A DNA stretch of 41,615 nucleotides from an uncultured delta proteobacterium (GCA_963794325.1 CAWCDG010000001.1:1-41615), one strand, 5' to 3'; positions 19,925-27,999 are shown, counted from the first letter of the stretch. Numbers and translations: made by a program. Notes: a model not told the origin generated them from the sequence alone.

Positions 19925-20995
19925 TTGTCAGTCAAAATCGAATCGCCCACCGGTGATGAAGCGCTCACCGAATTCGTTCTCTTTCAGCATCGGGTTTACG
20001 AATACCGCAGCGCGCGATGGGCCGCGATGGTGGCCGTGCAACTCCCGATCCTGATGGGCGAAGGGCCGTTCGCCGCCGGCCGCAAGATCCGGCCGTTTAC
20101 CGCGCGCGTCGACGGCAACATCGTCGCGCGCGCCGTCGCGATAATCGACGGCCACTATCAACATCACTGGAACGATCCGCTTGGGCATATCGTGATGTTC
20201 GAGGCGATGCCTAATACGGGCGACGCCGTGAATCCGATGATCGACGCCGCTTCGGAATGGATGAAAACCAACGGCGCGAGCGCCGCGCGCGCCGGCTATG
20301 GATTGCTCGAGTTTCCTTTCGTGATCGACGATTACGAAACTCTGCCGCCCGACATCGCGCGGCAGAATCCGGGGTACTACCACGCGCTGCTGAAAGATGC
20401 GGGATTCGAAACCGAGCGCGGATGGGTCGATTATAAGATTGAGGTAACCCCGGAGCTGATCGCTCGCTACGAAAGCGCACTCGAAGCGAGTCGTCGCGCG
20501 GGTTTTCAAATCGTCGCGCTGAAGGACTTGCCAGCCGCGCGCCGCATCCGCGATTTCGAGCATACCTGGAACATTGCATTCGCAAATCATTGGGGCGCGA
20601 CGCCCTTCACCACTGAGGAACTTTCGTTCCTGTTCGATTTCTTCGCTATGTCCGGCGCGCTCGACACGTCGGTGCTCGCGTATCACGACGGTCAGCCGGT
20701 CGGCGCCCTGATGGTCACACCGCCCAATGCCGACGGCGCAATTCTCAAGCCCGGCCGAAAGCTGGCGGACAACGAGAAACTGAACTTTCTAGGCATCGGC
20801 GTGCTCCAGGAAGCGCGCGGACGCGGCGTCAACCTCGCAATGGCGGCGTATTCATATCTGCACCTGATCCGCCATGGCTCGAAATTCCTCAGCTATACAC
20901 TGGTGCTCGATGACAACTGGCCATCGCGCCGCACCGCAGAAAAACTCGGCGCCAAGGTTTGCGCGAACTACGTCACCTATCGGCGCGACTTCTGA
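19925..20995 (+). CDS. GNAT-like N-acetyltransferase (YghO-like)
   Basis: Motifs ARAVAIID, GHIVMFEA, NPGYYHALL, AFANHWG, GIGVLQEARGRGVN and YTLVLDDNWPSRRTAEKLG; TTG start is uncertain. Confidence 0.7.
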   Translation: MSVKIESPTGDEALTEFVLFQHRVYEYRSARWAAMVAVQLPILMGEGPFAAGRKIRPFTARVDGNIVARAVAIIDGHYQHHWNDPLGHIVMFEAMPNTGDAVNPMIDAASEWMKTNGASAARAGYGLLEFPFVIDDYETLPPDIARQNPGYYHALLKDAGFETERGWVDYKIEVTPELIARYESALEASRRAGFQIVALKDLPAARRIRDFEHTWNIAFANHWGATPFTTEELSFLFDFFAMSGALDTSVLAYHDGQPVGALMVTPPNADGAILKPGRKLADNEKLNFLGIGVLQEARGRGVNLAMAAYSYLHLIRHGSKFLSYTLVLDDNWPSRRTAEKLGAKVCANYVTYRRDF

Positions 20996-21183
20996 ACTTT
21001 GTTCTGCTTCCAGAGCTACTAACAGGCTCAAACAATTTGTAGGCCAGAAGAACCTTCTGGCGTTAAGCGGGGAACAGTGATTAATTCGCCAACGTCAACT
21101 CAGTCTCGCGGCGGCTGACGACTCGTCACTCTTACACTCAGACAATCTCAGCGGAAGACAAAGGACGTGGGGGTAAAACCGAA

Positions 21184-21777
21184 GTGCCAGGTAAACGAAA
21201 AAAATCCACTAAGTCGATCTCTCGAAAAGAGAAGCCGGCGACGCGCGCCAGGAAAAAGCATAGAAGCACAGTGTCTCACCGTGCTTACGAAGCTAAGATT
21301 CAAGCCGCGGTGAACGGTATGTCGTCGGACGTTCAGTCGATCCTGGGAAAGCTGGACGAGAACGATGCAAACGCGGCTCCCACCGAAGGAATTTCAAAGA
21401 GGATCAATGCGCTGATCGGCGAGACCACCAACGGAAAGCCGGTACCAGCGGATCACGAACACAGAATAGAAAGAATTTTGTATGCGGTAGCCGGGATTGA
21501 CCATCAATACAATATCGGTGGATCCACGTCTGGGACCCCGGTCCATCCACCATCAACCAGTGACTCGCATGAGACAAAGGTACTGAAACTCTTCACGACC
21601 ATTAATAAAATTAGCCGGGATGTTTTCTCGATACTCGAATCTGCTACGACGCTGCCGGTTCCACCGACGCCAACAGCGGATAACACTAACGACATTGTTG
21701 CTATGGCACTCGACACTCAGATGGTGGTCCATAAGATCTGCGTTCATATCGATCAAATTCATTCGGCTAGTAAGTGA
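21184..21777 (+). CDS. Hypothetical helical-repeat protein, copy 1, with a basic N-terminal tail
   Basis: About half identical by hand alignment to 22235-22762 (YEAKI, ILYAVA, QY.IGG, LFTTIN, IVAMA.DT); the start context matches that of copy 2. Confidence 0.8.
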   Translation: MPGKRKKSTKSISRKEKPATRARKKHRSTVSHRAYEAKIQAAVNGMSSDVQSILGKLDENDANAAPTEGISKRINALIGETTNGKPVPADHEHRIERILYAVAGIDHQYNIGGSTSGTPVHPPSTSDSHETKVLKLFTTINKISRDVFSILESATTLPVPPTPTADNTNDIVAMALDTQMVVHKICVHIDQIHSASK

Positions 21778-21802
21778 GTTGAGTCCTCGCTGATGTAACC
21801 GC

Positions 21803-22018
21803 ATGCCGGGCAGAGGATCAAATCTTCCCCCAGCGTCGGCGGCAGAACGCGCTGGAGCAGCGACTGAGACATTCGTCGGGCGCGCGCGCGAGTTGGGCGA
21901 GTTGCGTGCCAGCCTCGCCAGCATCGCTGGCGGACGCGGTAAACTCTATTTTCTTATCGGTGAGCCTGGAATCGGCAAGACGCGGCTGGCAGAAGAAATC
22001 GCTGCAGAAGCGGAGCGC
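21803..22018 (+). pseudogene. Truncated 5' fragment (72 codons) of the STAND ATPase gene
   Basis: FVGRARELGELRASL..GEPGIGKTRLAEEIAAEAER matches the N-terminus of 22788-26123, then runs into the duplicated GNAT tail. Confidence 0.88.
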
Positions 22019-22234
22019 TTTGCGCGAACTACGTCACCTATCGCCGCGACTTCTAAGGCAAGACAATTTCTAGGCCACAAGCACGTTATAGCCTTAAGCG
22101 GGGAACAGTGCTTAATTCGCACCGTCAACCAGTCTGGCGGCGGCTTGCGACTCGTCGCTCCTTGTACTCGGACACTTCTGAGCTGACAGCGCCTGTTCGC
22201 GAATCCCGCAATCGACCAAAAAGGTGAACCGAAA

Positions 22235-22762
22235 ATGGCGGCAACGCATCATCCGTACGAGGCCAAGATCTACAATACCGTCGATGGGATTTTGACCGAT
22301 CTCCAGGCGATCCTGATCAAGCTGAAGCAGCACCCGAATGACGGCAACCTGGCGCCCACTAACGGAATGATCGACAGGCTTGGCGCCCTGCTCAAGGAGC
22401 TGAAGAACGGAAGTCCGAATCAGACGACTCATGACACCAACATAGAAGGGATACTGTATGCAGTTGCCCAAATGGGCGATCAGTACATCATCGGGGGAGC
22501 ATCGCCGGCGACGCAGGCCTATCCGCCGCCGACCGGAGGTACGCATGAGCAACGCGTGCTGCGACTGTTCACGACGATCAATTCGATATGCCGCGAAATT
22601 TTCCAAATTCTCGAGCCCGGGGCGTTGCAACCACCGCAGCCCACCGGCGGCGCCGGCAACACGCAGAAGATTGTAGCCATGGCGAAGGACACTCTGAAGG
22701 TCGTCAAAAACATCCGGCAACACATCGTGACCATTCACGGCATAATAGCCTTCAGCAAGTGA
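22235..22762 (+). CDS. Hypothetical helical-repeat protein, copy 2
   Basis: AAGGTG RBS and ATG start; paralogue of 21184-21777; ends 25 nt before the ATPase start. Confidence 0.85.
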   Translation: MAATHHPYEAKIYNTVDGILTDLQAILIKLKQHPNDGNLAPTNGMIDRLGALLKELKNGSPNQTTHDTNIEGILYAVAQMGDQYIIGGASPATQAYPPPTGGTHEQRVLRLFTTINSICREIFQILEPGALQPPQPTGGAGNTQKIVAMAKDTLKVVKNIRQHIVTIHGIIAFSK

Positions 22763-22787
22763 GTTGAGTCGGCATTGACGTAACGAC

Positions 22788-25700
22788 ATGCCGGGCGATC
22801 CAGTAAATCCTCCTCTCGCATCAAGCGCGGAGAGTGCCGTACCAGCGCGTGGAATATTCGTCGGGCGCGAGCGCGAGCTGACCGAGTTGCGCGCCAGTCT
22901 CGCCGGCGTCGCAGGCGGACGCGGTCAACTCTTCTGCCTGGTCGGTGAGCCCGGCATCGGCAAGACCCGCTTGGCCGAAGAAATCGCTACAGATGCGGAG
23001 CGCGCCGGCGCAAAGGTCGCGTGGGGGCGATGCTGGGAAGGAGGCGGCGCGCCGGCCTATTGGCCGTGGACTCAGGCGCTGCGGCATTGCGCGGCGACGA
23101 TCAACCCGCGCGCCACCGACGCGATACTTCCTTCGACCGCTCGGCAGATGTTGGGACTAGCGCCGGAGTTGTCCGGCGAGAGCGCGTCGCCTGAAAGTTG
23201 GTCGCGGGCGACGATGCTCTCCGGGCTGCCTACCAGCGGCGGTTCTCCGTTCGATCCGGCGCGCTTTCAGATGTTCGACTCGCTGGCCGCGTATTTGAAA
23301 CGGCTGGCAAACGATACGCCGCTGGTCCTGGTGCTCGACGATCTTCACGCTGCCGACGCCGACTCATTGCATCTGCTTCGTTTCGTCTCGCGCGACCTGG
23401 TGCAAAGCAGGATTTTGATTCTGGCGACTTATCGCGAAACCGAGGCGCGTCTGTCGGCGGAGCACGCGAATCTTTTGAGCTCGATCGGGCGGGAAGGCCG
23501 CACCATCCATCTGGCCGGACTATCCCAGGAGGAAGTTGCCGCATTCGCGAAAAGCAACGCCGCGCTCGTACCCGATGACCGATTGGTCTCGACGTTGTGC
23601 GACGTTACCGAAGGCAATCCATTTTTTCTCGATGAAACGTTGCGCTTGCTGGGCACCGATCGCAGCGCCGGATTGCAAGACCGAATCGCGGCGGGGCTGG
23701 CGATTCCCGACAGCGTGCGCGAGGCTATCCGAAAAAAGGTTGCGCCGCTCTCGAGCGACGCGCGCGACGCAATCGAGATCGCTTCGGTGATCGGCCGCGA
23801 GTTCGACATCCATCTGCTCTCGCAAGTGTGCGGGCTCACGGTCGGCGAGTGCGTCGCGCGGCTCGCGGAAGCGGTGTCCCATGGAATCATCGGCGACCTT
23901 GGCGATGCGGCCGGTCGCTTCCGATTCACTCACGCGATGATCCCGGAAACCTTGGCTGCGGATATTCCGCGGCTGCGGCTGATGCAGCTTCATCAGCAGA
24001 TCGCGCAGTCACTCGAGCGGCTGCATAGCGACGACCTGTTCGACTATCTGCCTCAGTTGGCCGAGCATTACATTCGTTCATTGCCGGCCGGGCCTCGGGA
24101 CAAGGCAGTCGAGTTTGCCGCGCGCGGCGCGAGACGCGCGATGCGGCAATTGGCGTATGAAGAAGGTGCGCGCCTTTTCCAGATGGCGCTCGACGCGCTC
24201 GCAATCGCGCCGGCCTCGGAACAATCGGCGACCTGCGGCCTGATGATTGAGCTCGGCGAAGCGCTAACCAAGGCGGGCTACGTAGATCGATCGCGCGAAG
24301 TCTTTATGAGCGCGTCCGCGCTCGCGCGCAAATCAAACGACGGCGATGCGTTCGCGAAGACTGCCCTTGGCATCGGAATTCAATCGAGCACCGCCGGAAC
24401 GGTTGACCGAACGCTGGTCGAGTTGCTGGAAGAAGCGCTGCGCTCATCAGGTAGCACCGATAGCGCGCAGAAAGCGATGCTACTCGCGCGACTGGCGGCA
24501 GCACTCTACTGGTCGGATCAGCATGAGCGCTCGATCGAGCTGTCGCAGAGCGCGGTCGATATGGCGCGGCGCCTCGACGACCCGCTCGCGCTGATTTACG
24601 TACTGTGCATGTGGCACTACTCATTGTGGGGACCGGATAACCTGGACGCGCGGCTGAAAACCGCGCAGGAAATGAAGTCCCTGGCCGATCGGATAAAAGA
24701 CCGGGAATGGGCTCTCAGAGCTCTCGAGATGCATCTGGCGGATTTGCTTGAAACCGGCGCGATCGAGGAAGCCGATACCGATCTCAAGAGCTACGAGGAG
24801 CTGTCAGGCAAGACCGGCAGCGGCAATTCGGTGGTCGAGCTTTCCTACGCGATGCGCGCGCTGTTACACGGCGAACTCGCGGAAGGCGAGCGACTGGCCG
24901 AGCACGCGATGGCAGTCGGTCAGCGTCGTCAGGAACCGCGCGCATTGTTGTCATACGCTGCGCAGGTGGGTTTGATTCGCTTCGAGCAGCATCGCATGGG
25001 CGAGCTCGAGCCGATCTTGCGCGCGTATGTCGAGCAGTATCCGGTACTCGATGTGGCGCGGTCGGGACTCGCGATGGCCTATGTCGAGGCCGGCCGCGAA
25101 GCGGAAGCGCGAGTCCAATTCGAGTATCTCGCGCGCGACGATTTCAGCGCATTGCGCCGCGACTGGAATTGGCTCGCGACGATGGCAATTTTGTCGACGC
25201 TATGCGTCTTCATCCGCGACCGCGATCGAGCGGTGCGAATCTACGATTTGATGCTGCCGTATGCTGAGCGGATCGCAATGGTCGGATGGACCGAGGTTTG
25301 TTACGGATCGGTCTCGCGTTACCTGGGCAATCTCGCGGCCCTGCTGCTTCGGTACGACGATGCGCAGCGTCATTACGAATCCGCGATCGCGATGAACGCA
25401 AGAATCGGCGCTCGCGGTTGGCTCGCGCACAGTCAGCACGAATATGCGGCGATGTTGCGCGAACGGGGTGAAGATCGGGATCGCGCTCGAGCCGACGCGC
25501 TCAACGATCAGGCGCTGGCGACCGCCGATTTGCTCGGGATGAGAACCTTGCTGGAAAGTGCGAGGGCACTGAAGACTGCGCACAACGCGAATGCGGCGCC
25601 ATCGACCCGTCGTGCCGGCGACGCGCCGCGCACGCTGGTAACCGTGTTGTTTATCGATATCGTGGGATCGACCGGGCATGCGTCGCGGCTCGGCGACCGC

Positions 25701-26123
25701 AAATGGCGCGACAAGCTGGAACAGTTCTACGCGATCGTCAGAAAAGCCCTGACCGCTTTTCGTGGGCGCGAGATCACCAATCCGGGCGACGGGTTTCTCG
25801 CAGTGTTCGACGCACCGGCCGATGCCGTCGCGGCTGCCTTCGACATCCGGTCGGCCGTGTCGGCGCTTGAGATGCAGGTAAGAGCGGGACTCCATTGCGG
25901 GGAATGCGAGTGGGTCGGCGATCAGGCGGTGGGCATCGCGATTCACATCGGCGCGCGCATCGCCACTACCGCGGCGCCCGATGAAGTGTTGGCGTCGAGC
26001 ACGGTGCGCGACGTAGTTTCCGGTTCAGAGATGATTTTGACCGACACTGGATTGCATCGCCTGCGCGGCGTACCTGAAGAGTGGCGTCTCTACCGCGTCG
26101 ACTCGATCGGGCACCAGAATTGA
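22788..26123 (+). CDS. STAND-type AAA ATPase with TPR-like repeats and a C-terminal class III nucleotide cyclase domain
   Basis: FVGRERE, Walker A GEPGIGKT, Walker B LVLDDLH, GNPFF and helical repeats; cyclase motifs VLFIDIVGST, GDGF, VRAGLHCGE and IHIGARI. Confidence 0.92.
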   Translation: MPGDPVNPPLASSAESAVPARGIFVGRERELTELRASLAGVAGGRGQLFCLVGEPGIGKTRLAEEIATDAERAGAKVAWGRCWEGGGAPAYWPWTQALRHCAATINPRATDAILPSTARQMLGLAPELSGESASPESWSRATMLSGLPTSGGSPFDPARFQMFDSLAAYLKRLANDTPLVLVLDDLHAADADSLHLLRFVSRDLVQSRILILATYRETEARLSAEHANLLSSIGREGRTIHLAGLSQEEVAAFAKSNAALVPDDRLVSTLCDVTEGNPFFLDETLRLLGTDRSAGLQDRIAAGLAIPDSVREAIRKKVAPLSSDARDAIEIASVIGREFDIHLLSQVCGLTVGECVARLAEAVSHGIIGDLGDAAGRFRFTHAMIPETLAADIPRLRLMQLHQQIAQSLERLHSDDLFDYLPQLAEHYIRSLPAGPRDKAVEFAARGARRAMRQLAYEEGARLFQMALDALAIAPASEQSATCGLMIELGEALTKAGYVDRSREVFMSASALARKSNDGDAFAKTALGIGIQSSTAGTVDRTLVELLEEALRSSGSTDSAQKAMLLARLAAALYWSDQHERSIELSQSAVDMARRLDDPLALIYVLCMWHYSLWGPDNLDARLKTAQEMKSLADRIKDREWALRALEMHLADLLETGAIEEADTDLKSYEELSGKTGSGNSVVELSYAMRALLHGELAEGERLAEHAMAVGQRRQEPRALLSYAAQVGLIRFEQHRMGELEPILRAYVEQYPVLDVARSGLAMAYVEAGREAEARVQFEYLARDDFSALRRDWNWLATMAILSTLCVFIRDRDRAVRIYDLMLPYAERIAMVGWTEVCYGSVSRYLGNLAALLLRYDDAQRHYESAIAMNARIGARGWLAHSQHEYAAMLRERGEDRDRARADALNDQALATADLLGMRTLLESARALKTAHNANAAPSTRRAGDAPRTLVTVLFIDIVGSTGHASRLGDRKWRDKLEQFYAIVRKALTAFRGREITNPGDGFLAVFDAPADAVAAAFDIRSAVSALEMQVRAGLHCGECEWVGDQAVGIAIHIGARIATTAAPDEVLASSTVRDVVSGSEMILTDTGLHRLRGVPEEWRLYRVDSIGHQN

Positions 26124-26265: not shown

Positions 26266-27999
26266 ATGGCCGATTTCGATCTTCACATTAAAGGTGGAAC
26301 TGTCGTTGACGGGACCCGAGTCCCGCGATATCGCGCTGACGTCTGGATAAAGGACGGCAAGATCGCGCAGGTCGGCGGACGATCTCCCGGATTCGCGAAG
26401 AAGACGATCGATGCCGGCGGCATGATCGTCGCTCCCGGCTTCGTCGATTTGCACACGCACTACGACGCGCAGATTCGATGGGACCCGTACTGCACCATCT
26501 CAGGATGGCACGGCGTCACCTCGGTAGTGCTCGGCAATTGCGGCTTCGGATTCGTGCCGGTCAAGCCGGATTTCCGCGAACGCTCGATGCTCACGATGAC
26601 GCGCACCGAGGCGATTCCCTACGAGTCGATGAAGGTCGGGATGAAGTGGGATTGGGAAACGATTCCGCAGTATCTCGATTCCCTCGATCGCACCGCCAAG
26701 GGCGTCAACGTGATCCAGTATTTGCCGACTTCGTCGCTGCTGACCTACGTGATGGGGCTCGAGGCCGCCAAGACCCGGCCCGCAACCGACGACGAACGCG
26801 CCGAGATGCGCGCGCTGCTCGCGGAAGGAATGGACAATGGGCTCGGTGGATTCTCGGTGCAGCGGCTCGGCCCGGATTCCACGCAGGCGGACTTCGACGG
26901 CTCGCCGATGGTCACCGACACGATGTGCGATGAGGACATCCTGAATCTCGCGCGCGTTCTCCGCGAGCGCGACGAGGGCTTCATTCAGATCACGCAGGCG
27001 ACCGGTCATATCAAGGACGATCTCGCGTTCCTCGAACGACTCGCGGCCGAGGCGAATCGCCCGATCCTGCACAATGCGATCGCACCCGCGCGCCGCGATC
27101 CCAAGGTTCATCAGCGGAGCCTCGCGTGGCTCAAGCGATGCCGCGAGAAGGGTCTGCCGATTTTCGGTCAGACCGCGACGCTCCGCACCGGCTTCGCGTT
27201 CACGCTCGAGCATTGGAATCTCTACGACGCCAGTCCCGCGTGGCGCACCGTCACCACCGGCAGCAACGAAGAAAAAATTTCCAAGATGAAGGATCCCGCT
27301 CTACGCGAGGCGATCAAGCGCGAACACGGCGAAGCTAATAAAAAGCTCGAAGCAATTCAGGCCGGAGTCGGCGGTCCGATCCGTCATCTGATCGTGTCGT
27401 GGGCGAACGACAAGCCGGAGCTGGAAAAATACGTGGGCAAATCGATCGGACAAATCGCCGCCGAGGAAAACAAGCACGAGATCGACGCGATGCTCGATCT
27501 CTCGATTGCCGGCGATCTCAAGGTCGAGTTCCTCGGTCCAAATCGCGGCTTCAACGCCGAGTTCTATGCCGAGATGATCAACGACTCGCCTTACACTATC
27601 CCCGGCGTGTCGGATGGCGGCGCGCATACCAAGTTCTTCACCGGCGGCGCTTACACGACAGACTTCCTGGGATGGCTGGTTCGCGACGAGCAACGAATCA
27701 CTCTCGAAGAGGCGCACTACCGGCTGTCCGCCCTGCCCGCTCATGCGGCCGGCTTCCGCGATCGTGGCGTCTTGCGCGAAGGGCTGGCGGCGGATGTCGT
27801 CGTGTACGATCTCGCGCGGCTCGGTGTCGAGCCGGACTGGGTCGGCGATATTGCGCACGACTTTCCGGGCGGCGAATGGCGTCGCGTGCAGCACGCGCGC
27901 GGATATCGCGCGATCGTCGTCAACGGCGAGATGACCTGGGACGACGGTCGATGCACCGGCGCGACACCCGGCAAACTGCTGCGCGGCGGCCGCGGATAA
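26266..27999 (+). CDS. Amidohydrolase, N-acyl-D-amino-acid deacylase family
   Basis: Motifs IKGGTVVDGT, APGFVDLHTHYD, HGVTSVVLGNCG, SDGGAH and DRGVLREGLAADVVVYD; AAGGAGG RBS. Confidence 0.92.
   Translation: MADFDLHIKGGTVVDGTRVPRYRADVWIKDGKIAQVGGRSPGFAKKTIDAGGMIVAPGFVDLHTHYDAQIRWDPYCTISGWHGVTSVVLGNCGFGFVPVKPDFRERSMLTMTRTEAIPYESMKVGMKWDWETIPQYLDSLDRTAKGVNVIQYLPTSSLLTYVMGLEAAKTRPATDDERAEMRALLAEGMDNGLGGFSVQRLGPDSTQADFDGSPMVTDTMCDEDILNLARVLRERDEGFIQITQATGHIKDDLAFLERLAAEANRPILHNAIAPARRDPKVHQRSLAWLKRCREKGLPIFGQTATLRTGFAFTLEHWNLYDASPAWRTVTTGSNEEKISKMKDPALREAIKREHGEANKKLEAIQAGVGGPIRHLIVSWANDKPELEKYVGKSIGQIAAEENKHEIDAMLDLSIAGDLKVEFLGPNRGFNAEFYAEMINDSPYTIPGVSDGGAHTKFFTGGAYTTDFLGWLVRDEQRITLEEAHYRLSALPAHAAGFRDRGVLREGLAADVVVYDLARLGVEPDWVGDIAHDFPGGEWRRVQHARGYRAIVVNGEMTWDDGRCTGATPGKLLRGGRG

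Follow-up and report, generated by a model that had tools for sequence, protein, structure and literature searches.

The stretch analysed here, called the window, is an entire contig (C1, 41,615 bp) of a 10-contig, 4.45-Mb metagenome bin of an uncultured delta proteobacterium (GCA_963794325.1, CAWCDG010000001.1:1-41615). To judge by the source names given for homologues, the organism probably belongs to Candidatus Binataceae. Between a GNAT acetyltransferase gene and an amidohydrolase gene it carries two related small open reading frames (ORFs), ORF1 and ORF2, and behind each of them the start of the same gene for a STAND-type ATPase with a predicted nucleotide cyclase domain: a stump behind ORF1 and the full gene behind ORF2 (Table 1). 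A preliminary description of this DNA had read the small ORF and the STAND gene as a two-gene signalling system, and its outline of the locus is borne out. The two small products, of 197 and 175 amino acids (aa), had been put at about 49% identity and are so by BLASTP (82/166 residues, 49%, E 7e-51). The STAND start, placed within about 25 nucleotides (nt) of each ORF, follows after 25 nt in both cases (ORF1 stop at 21777 and ATG at 21803; ORF2 stop at 22762 and ATG at 22788), with 72 codons left in the stump.

Origin of the two-copy array

Alignment of the DNA of the two copies resolves a tandem unit of 1,062 bp that starts at 20958, 38 nt ahead of the GNAT stop, and ends at 22018, 216 nt into STAND. 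The final 38 nt of GNAT (20958-20995) open unit 1, and a GNAT 3' remnant (22019-22054) opens unit 2. In the stump frame, the match to the STAND N-terminus is limited to residues 1-72 (50/72 identical, 69%, E 3e-27); because the GNAT 3' piece restarts at 22019, it then reads out of frame through the GNAT remnant and intergenic DNA. The stump (21803-22186) is probably a pseudogene remnant.

The two units have their closest relatives in different places. We fetched 15 related loci (L007-L021), which makes 16 with the window. One of them, L017, is colinear with window positions 20529-22018 at 90% identity and then runs into a full STAND gene, as a single-copy A locus. Three others (L009, L010, L011) align with the window at 85-88% identity, starting at 22019-22070. 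Two of them, L010 and L011, appear to be B loci with one copy only, and in L009 a second copy, of the type of the family member P0040, comes after B. In L007, B is followed by an A-like copy. The intact STAND gene of the window is itself composite. Over nt 1-180 its identity is 92-95% with L010/L011 and 63-80% with L017; beyond about nt 240 the figures are 92-98% for L017 and 73-93% for L010/L011, with a breakpoint at about nt 180-240. The stump, over nt 1-216, is 90% identical to the STAND gene of L017. The mosaic and the A-like stump together indicate that a B-lineage tract coinciding with unit 2 sits in an A-lineage locus. On these alignments, ORF1 and ORF2 are old alleles, A and B, of a single gene confined to a narrow lineage, and recombination has stacked them.

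Table 1. Features of the insertion site, in window coordinates
Feature	Position	Strand	Basis or remark
GNAT acetyltransferase gene, conserved left flank	19925..20995	+	Pfam Acetyltransf_1 E 9.6e-6
Repeat unit 1, A lineage: GNAT 3' end, upstream element, ORF1, STAND nt 1-216	20958..22018	+	DNA alignment
Upstream element copy 1	21063..21096	+	TTAAGC-N10-GATTAA imperfect palindrome overlapping GGGAAC-N17-CGTC; promoter- or operator-like
ORF1, predicted five-helix small protein, allele A, 197 aa, GTG start	21184..21777	+	K/R-rich N-terminal tail
STAND stump frame, 127 aa	21803..22186	+	Codons 1-72 (21803-22018) are the A-lineage STAND 5' end, including Walker A
Repeat unit 2, B-lineage tract: GNAT 3' remnant, element copy 2, ORF2, first ~216 nt of STAND	22019..23003	+	Identity to B loci
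Upstream element copy 2	22094..22126	+	TTAAGC-N10-GCTTAA palindrome overlapping GGGAAC-N16-CGTC
ORF2, predicted five-helix small protein, allele B, 175 aa, ATG start, without K/R tail	22235..22762	+	Translation, AlphaFold2 model
Intact STAND gene, 1111 aa	22788..26123	+	AAA_16 NTPase, helical/TPR region, predicted C-terminal LipJ-type class III cyclase
Amidohydrolase gene, conserved right flank of the insertion site	26266..27999	+	Pfam Amidohydro_3 E 3.8e-27

The preliminary description had taken the two ORFs for duplicates that diverged where they stand, and this part of it gives way, as each has a closer single-copy counterpart elsewhere. Ordinary paralogy by local tandem duplication and divergence in place would explain why both units align end to end with a clean junction, yet we hold it very improbable on three counts. 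L017 shares 90% identity with unit 1, and L009/L010/L011 share 85-88% with unit 2, as against about 50% protein identity between the units. Synonymous divergence (dS) between ORF1 and ORF2 is 1.6, compared with 0.19 for GNAT between the window and L017 and with 0.44-0.86 for flanking genes in pairs of the window and another locus; all dS values and ratios of nonsynonymous to synonymous divergence (dN/dS) given here were estimated pairwise by NG86, and a dS greater than 1 approaches saturation. Finally, the B tract has the extent of unit 2, and past about nt 240 the STAND body is again of the A lineage. That the feature is not real, be it as spurious ORFs, which arise plentifully by chance in high-GC DNA, or as an assembly joining two strains, in a metagenome bin of 10 contigs with a contig of just 41.6 kb, is a negligible prospect in view of dN/dS below 1 in all pairs, a confident predicted fold, 44 homologues and a junction bridged by contigs of other runs.

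The bridging contigs come from public sequencing runs. In X2, record 10 covers 21266-22114 and thereby the junction between 22018 and 22019; in X1, record 6 (20964-22048) is a borderline bridge that reaches just 30 nt beyond it. The array is therefore not an assembly artefact, with the qualification that the bridging runs are all from one study and may include the sample behind the window assembly. Window positions 20900-23400 were found in four DNA runs of one study, with no RNA run among those listed. In a contig of run X4, 71 nt of the window (22880-22952), in the variable N-terminal part of STAND, are replaced by 77 other letters, which suggests a further strain variant in the same habitat.

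In this genome, then, a B-lineage unit (the last 38 nt of GNAT, the element, ORF-B and about 216 nt of STAND) has been set into an A-lineage locus. The 5' end of the A-type STAND gene was moved upstream in the process, to become the present 72-codon stump, and a chimeric intact STAND gene was left. A single homologous exchange close to the conserved P-loop region could have brought the repeat unit in, as a circle or a linear piece; alternatively, heteroallelic chromosomes could have undergone unequal exchange and then another crossover. It is also possible that the A-B array is older and that other lineages have reciprocally lost one copy or the other. Stacking of small-ORF copies is recurrent: two-copy arrays occur in 3/16 loci (the window, L007 and L009), and each copy has its own upstream element. 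ORF1 stands out in composition, its GC (0.50, and 0.54 at third codon positions, GC3) being far below that of its neighbourhood (0.63 and 0.72 for STAND). ORF2, with GC3 of 0.72, is like STAND and the flanks, and alleles A and B thus differ in codon composition too.

The small protein and the STAND-cyclase

The small ORF is a real, fast-evolving and very rare protein gene that belongs to no curated family. A word-based search of 5.8 billion proteins returned 44 homologues at E <= 0.01 among 95 candidates; none of the 44 has a Pfam domain or a name beyond 'hypothetical'. When 1.84 billion representatives were searched with a profile, 18 members reached E <= 1e-3, and because all 18 span 44-208 aa no fused form is seen. 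Seven distant members (21-41% identity) are of the same length, with a K/R-rich tail at either end; distant members lie on JGI contigs that reach 23.7 kb. That the small ORFs could not be assigned to a family, as the preliminary description put it, agrees with our searches: ORF1 and ORF2 matched nothing in Pfam, NCBIfam or PADLOC, and a profile search of the PDB gave nothing credible (best E 0.0018 over 32 residues). Keyword searches of the literature returned no account of the family, although such searches cannot exclude one.

The label 'helical repeat', which had been attached to these proteins, is replaced by a different fold. From an alignment of 42 sequences, AlphaFold2 predicts a five-helix bundle for ORF2 (pLDDT 92.2, pTM 0.89) with helices at residues 7-30, 39-58, 63-82, 104-126 and 142-167 and long loops at 83-103 and 127-141. 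A Foldseek search with this model, which had been proposed as a check, linked it to no known unrelated family: no match reached E <= 1e-3, and the best in the PDB (E 0.069) and in BFVD (E 0.064) are generic helical bundles. The VIA wide fold search placed a designed helical barrel first, at Z 11.0, which is below the value of about 13 quoted for helical bundles, and natural proteins at Z 7.9 or less; the best ESM Atlas score, 0.76, is at most a lead. On a crude profile, helices 3 and 4 are the most conserved, and helices 1 and 5, the loops and the C-terminus the most variable. No transmembrane-like segment was seen in the five members tested (5/5; maximal 19-residue Kyte-Doolittle means 0.94-1.37). 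The ORF1 tail has 13 K+R within the first 30 residues, many alleles have 12-14, and the isoelectric point is 8.7-9.5 in 4/5 family proteins computed, P0050 having 5.9. We note that conserved His, Glu and Asp residues, together with low-probability Dps and bacterioferritin rows, prompted a di-metal (hemerythrin- or ferritin-like) reading. In the distant members only E9, D36, N38, E55 and H66 are kept, and most His are lost, so that it is a possibility at most.

Selection on the small ORF fits the earlier remark that the protein evolves fast. Its dN/dS is 0.23-0.58 in 18/18 pairs, at the top of a gradient that runs from the metallo-beta-lactamase (MBL)-fold gene beyond GNAT (0.03-0.06) through amidohydrolase (0.03-0.09) and GNAT (0.06-0.14) to STAND (0.10-0.24). 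ORF1 and the L017 copy, 83% identical, give 0.58, and ORF2 against the B-type orthologues 0.23-0.50. Values in this range in all pairs imply purifying selection that is two to four times more relaxed than on STAND.

The large gene reads as an AAA_16-type STAND NTPase with a predicted LipJ-type class III cyclase, which agrees with the STAND ATPase and nucleotide cyclase named in the preliminary description. AAA_16 is matched well above its cut-off (E 1.2e-27, 97.8 bits against 32.6; profile positions 2-166 of 167) at residues 24-211 (nt 22857-23420), and the translation contains a Walker A motif, GEPGIGKT, and a Walker B region, LVLVLDDLH. The TPR assignment is weak, since TPR_12 scores 21 bits under a cut-off of 30.1; paralogues of the same layout score above it. 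Guanylate_cyc covers residues 950-1094 (nt 25635-26069) at 27.8 bits (cut-off 21.9). The NCBIfam LipJ model matches residues 940-1103 (E 7e-53, 179.9 bits, cut-off 800), and as this match covers the cyclase part alone the protein is not a LipJ equivalog. Against PDB 1ybt the cyclase gives E 6.5e-44, with FIDIVGST/FTDIVGST, PGDGF/AGDGF and IHIGAR/VHIGAR aligned, the last of these holding the LipJ-type His-x-x-x-Arg motif. We take the FxDIVGST and GDGF motifs to hold both metal-binding Asp residues, and a His to stand in place of the usual Asn, as in the LipJ structure.

This STAND family is expanded in the genus: 38/47 genomes have matches at E <= 1e-30, and as many as 16 are listed for a single genome. 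The window's own genome has 17 intact-looking paralogues, the window gene included (other places are, for example, C10:39032-40255 and C4:1442861-1444210), plus the stump, and in most of them the AAA_16 module begins 230-320 residues in. Many separate proteins of about 445 aa match the cyclase part only, at 51-57% identity, as would be expected of LipJ-like proteins.

An accessory cassette with a conserved junction

The small ORF and STAND are one accessory cassette of certain soil bacteria, in a variable GNAT/amidohydrolase insertion site. All 15 related loci are syntenic with the window, with an MBL-fold gene on the opposite strand, GNAT, small ORF, STAND and amidohydrolase. Across them, identity to the window is 87-98% for the flanking proteins, 74-92% for STAND and 43-87% for the small ORF. 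STAND comes directly after the last small ORF in 12/15; the contigs of L009, L015 and L019 end too early, and L019 still shows the conserved junction and the STAND start codon. In none of the 15 does another gene follow the last small ORF. Among species-representative genomes, the small ORF is present in its own genome and in 1/36 others of the genus, with one genome (G456) added by locus; it was found in 0/100 other genomes of the family and in 0/400 sampled genomes of the phylum, bar one chance-level match (E 0.008, 36 residues in a 1144-aa frame). A GNAT orthologue, by comparison, is present in 47/47 genomes of the genus. Among the best 29 GNAT loci, amidohydrolase lies 97-248 nt downstream in 12, which is the empty site (one, L075, is from G024); the others carry varied cargo, namely an ORF of about 380 aa in four, a small gene pair in two and longer inserts in the rest.

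Several of these sites hold further genes. Two loci (L081, L084) have a pair of small genes on the opposite strand 3' of GNAT that look by eye like a HigB/RelE-type toxin and an XRE/HigA-type antitoxin. In G456, two tandem vWA genes (L007:3809-5824; 290 and 361 aa; VWA E 2.9e-13 and 2.4e-15) stand between GNAT and the array of small ORFs; proteins of the vWA type figure in several proposed conflict systems (PMC7159879). An MFS transporter gene occupies the corresponding place in L008. In L015, about 1.45 kb between the GNAT end and the small ORF (L015:400-1850) matches none of the query proteins and may be a further insertion or an extra copy that has diverged strongly.

Two noncoding features accompany the cassette. 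The first is a block of about 60 nt, some 90-140 nt 5' of every small-ORF start, with stronger conservation than the coding sequence: 14/14 aligned small-ORF copies have it, even where the proteins are about 45% identical, and a diverged version precedes the second copy in L009. Its consensus is a TTAAGC-N10-G(C/A)TTAA palindrome overlapping GGGAAC-N16/17-CGTC. In the own genome the element was found at the two window sites only, ahead of no other gene. Promoters of extracytoplasmic function (ECF) sigma factors have GGAAC at -35 and CGTC at -10, about 16-17 nt apart (PMC3397946), and by its motifs the element is possibly such a promoter. This reading is only tentative, because CGT(C/T) is kept in only 6/14 element copies (GGAAC in 12/14), a point that also counts against the partnership weighed below; an operator or a recombination anchor is the alternative. 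Rfam gave no match at E <= 1 over 20900-22900. A sigma-70 promoter scan returned three sites, all within ORFs (1.7 expected by chance) and none 5' of the small ORFs; none of the genome's 12 sigma-70-family genes lies on the window contig. No terminator-like site was seen on the + strand over 20800-25278.

The second feature is the junction. The gap from small ORF to STAND is 22-28 nt across loci, and the sequence ...AGYAAG TGA GTTGAGTC...ATGCC is kept across allele types that are otherwise about 45% identical, the codons for the final Ser-Lys being part of it. In every allele these two residues come last, and TGA-GTTGAGTC (or ATTGAATC, or ATGAGTC) comes next, in the window at 21769-21805 and 22754-22790. 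This block may be a translation-coupling signal or a recombination anchor.

Partnership of the small protein and STAND

Whether the small ORF and STAND form a functional partnership, with the small protein gating the STAND cyclase, is to our minds evenly balanced; a two-gene module is plausible. What stands of the two-gene system first proposed is the tight spacing, the conserved junction and the behaviour as one cassette. Under the partnership reading, the small ORF and STAND would share one transcript, begun at the upstream element. The small protein would be an allele-specific partner of STAND, most likely a bound inhibitor or 'bait', and its loss or modification would allow the ATPase to oligomerise and switch on the synthesis of cyclic nucleotide monophosphates (cNMP). 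A small-ORF cassette that can be swapped and stacked would diversify specificity. A role in conflict with phage or other mobile elements may be guessed from the insertion site, the pattern of alleles and the NLR-like build.

A number of findings weigh against this partnership. The count of neighbours, with STAND next in every locus whose contig reaches far enough, stands as a count; however, the 15 loci are one orthologous locus in one genus and therefore a single evolutionary observation, not 15, so that 'STAND always follows' counts once. The adjacency could be mere inheritance. In G004 (L008, G004:C9:60477-64477) frameshifts split the small ORF into two pieces and STAND into at least five, which reflects either decay of the cassette or sequencing errors in the assembly. 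Variability in STAND is spread over the whole protein rather than focused in the TPR region (crude profile), and there is thus no sign of a co-evolving sensor surface. No motif is common to the small ORF and the STAND protein. Nor does the STAND body vary in step with the small-ORF type: in L017, allele A goes with a STAND body 92% identical to that of the window. A complex prediction for STAND 1-820 with ORF2 gave 0.00 in two runs without controls, with 821-1111 excluded, and is evidence neither way.

The paralogous STAND genes weigh on both sides. None of the 16 other STAND paralogues in the own genome has a homologue of the small ORF upstream, and the closest one (on C10) and its orthologues follow an ORF of about 216 aa that looks GST-like by eye, all of which again tells against the partnership. 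We also examined 28 paralogous STAND loci from other genomes of the genus (L027-L035 without L030, plus L037-L056); L030 was left out because it is the cassette's own orthologue in G004. In 10/28, a plausible ORF of 133-232 aa on the same strand lies within about 170 nt upstream, which lends the pairing some independent support. Five of these (L032, L033, L034, L038, L039; 133-178 aa) form a family 2 with 26 metagenomic relatives and an AlphaFold2 model of a three-helix hairpin (pLDDT 91.4), two (L027, L028; mutually 68% identical) form a family 3, and L029, L031 and L035 are single cases. Seven such STANDs were scanned, with Guanylate_cyc found in L027, L029, L031, L032 and L035 and not in L033 or L034 at E <= 1e-5. 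With upstream ORFs at 10/28 loci, a small helical ORF before a STAND with N-terminal AAA_16 is a recurring theme, not a rule. These parallel ORFs are unrelated to the small ORF in sequence and fold, chance ORFs are common in the GC-rich DNA of the paralogous loci, and the remaining loci have nothing convincing upstream, except that L051, L052 and L054 likewise follow an ORF of about 216 aa, GST-like by eye. We note that the family 2 proteins, orphans too, share conserved K-x-H-D and M-T-P...H-H motifs, and that Foldseek returned coiled-coil rows only for their model. Homology between the small-ORF family and family 2 was considered and rejected (hhalign probability 0.8% and 0.5%; five helices versus three).

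Much of this evidence could also be read as pointing to a small protein that acts alone, for instance a stress-induced basic helical protein that binds nucleic acid or the nucleoid, and that was inserted with STAND as one block. A link that rests on one orthologous locus would be expected in that case, as would the K/R-rich tails of many alleles, found at either end in distant members, an upstream element of its own, and small-ORF types that do not co-vary with the STAND body. We nonetheless consider it doubtful, though a serious contender: a spacing of 22-28 nt and the junction are kept across all allele types, no terminator-like site separates the genes, no locus has another gene after the last small ORF, and small helical ORFs also stand upstream of other STAND-cyclase paralogues.

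A small protein acting downstream of STAND, as an effector or a toxin/antitoxin-like element on which STAND activation or cNMP would act, seems to us quite unlikely. The small neighbour in known NLR pairs is often the effector (as in the Bell-domain effector/NLR pairs with bacterial amyloid signalling motifs, Bell/BASS; bioRxiv 10.1101/2020.01.06.895854), and the insertion site holds the HigB/HigA-looking pair in other genomes. Against this, the small protein matched no cNMP-binding, nuclease, pore-forming or other effector family, it is without a hydrophobic helix and has no motif in common with the STAND N-terminus, and STAND already bears an effector domain of its own, the cyclase. The stacking of extra copies also fits a regulator or immunity-like protein better than a toxin.

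Known systems resemble the cassette in part. Bell/BASS pairs have a small all-helical protein of about 120-200 aa adjoining an NLR-like ATPase (bioRxiv 10.1101/2020.01.06.895854), and the layout here, a small helical gene beside a STAND gene with a putative TPR region and a short N-terminus before the P-loop, is like these and the fungal HET-S/NWD2-type pairs. The cassette differs from Bell/BASS in four respects. The C-terminus of the small protein and the STAND N-terminus have no common motif (BLASTP of ORF2 against STAND, best E 2.1). Unlike the Bell/BASS effector, the small protein has no N-terminal hydrophobic helix, its N-termini being K/R-rich or polar. The NTPase is AAA_16, with no NB-ARC or NACHT above cut-off, and the STAND protein has its own C-terminal enzymatic output. 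Like the mycobacterial Rv0386 group, the STAND protein joins a class III cyclase to an AAA_16-type STAND ATPase and a putative TPR region, and its cyclase is closest to the cyclase homology domain of LipJ/Rv1900c (PDB 1ybt). Rv0386-type proteins have the order cyclase-ATPase-TPR-LuxR; here the order is reversed, ATPase-TPR-cyclase, and Pfam gave no LuxR helix-turn-helix. We know of no small upstream partner for Rv0386-group proteins, and keyword literature searches, which cannot exclude one, returned no partner described for ATPase-TPR-cyclase proteins.

With Avs/AVAST, bNACHT and Pycsar the locus has in common a STAND ATPase, a putative repeat sensor, an effector domain, a variable accessory site and a predicted nucleotide second messenger. 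No Avs model was matched in PADLOC at E <= 0.01, where a missing match of a hidden Markov model does not exclude a distant relative; marginal matches were PycC (E 1.4e-3, 16.1 bits) and BrxD (E 1.4e-3). Unlike in Avs and Pycsar, the effector is C-terminal and no gene for a cNMP-activated effector was found alongside, as none of the neighbours GNAT, amidohydrolase and small ORF matched a cNMP-binding family. Orphan cassette arrays of contact-dependent inhibition (CDI) and Rhs systems, likewise, stack divergent alleles, leave a stump of the large gene beside a displaced cassette, and have conserved sequence flanking the variable part that can be used for recombination. In contrast to CDI/Rhs, the variable part here is 5' (the small ORF and the first ~45-70 codons of STAND) and not a 3' toxin tip; no toxin/immunity family was matched and no secretion signal seen.

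By analogy with plants, the small proteins might serve an NLR-like cyclase as bait or gatekeeper subunits that are specific to the allele and can be exchanged, a bacterial counterpart of the allelic series of NLR guardees and decoys with a cyclic-nucleotide output. We regard this extended proposal as unlikely but worth setting out. The old alleles would be maintained by balancing or diversifying selection, and recombination at the element and the conserved P-loop region would carry them from strain to strain. Stacking would leave one sensor guarded by several baits, and the unrelated ORFs upstream of paralogous STAND-cyclases would be further baits, recruited independently.

STAND and NLR-like ATPases are central to innate immunity and signalling across the domains of life and, to our knowledge, the trigger of most bacterial STAND ATPases is not known. 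The locus is a compact natural system in which an NLR-like ATPase with a measurable predicted cNMP output is paired with a protein of a new family, in divergent alleles that are swapped and stacked. If gating is false, the locus still offers a clear example of how recombination stacks alleles at an insertion hotspot, as well as a new family of orphan proteins whose fold is predicted with confidence. If the small protein does gate the ATPase, cognate and non-cognate alleles would provide a direct test of how specificity is encoded, and a partner-gated variant with cyclase output would be added to the NLR architectures.

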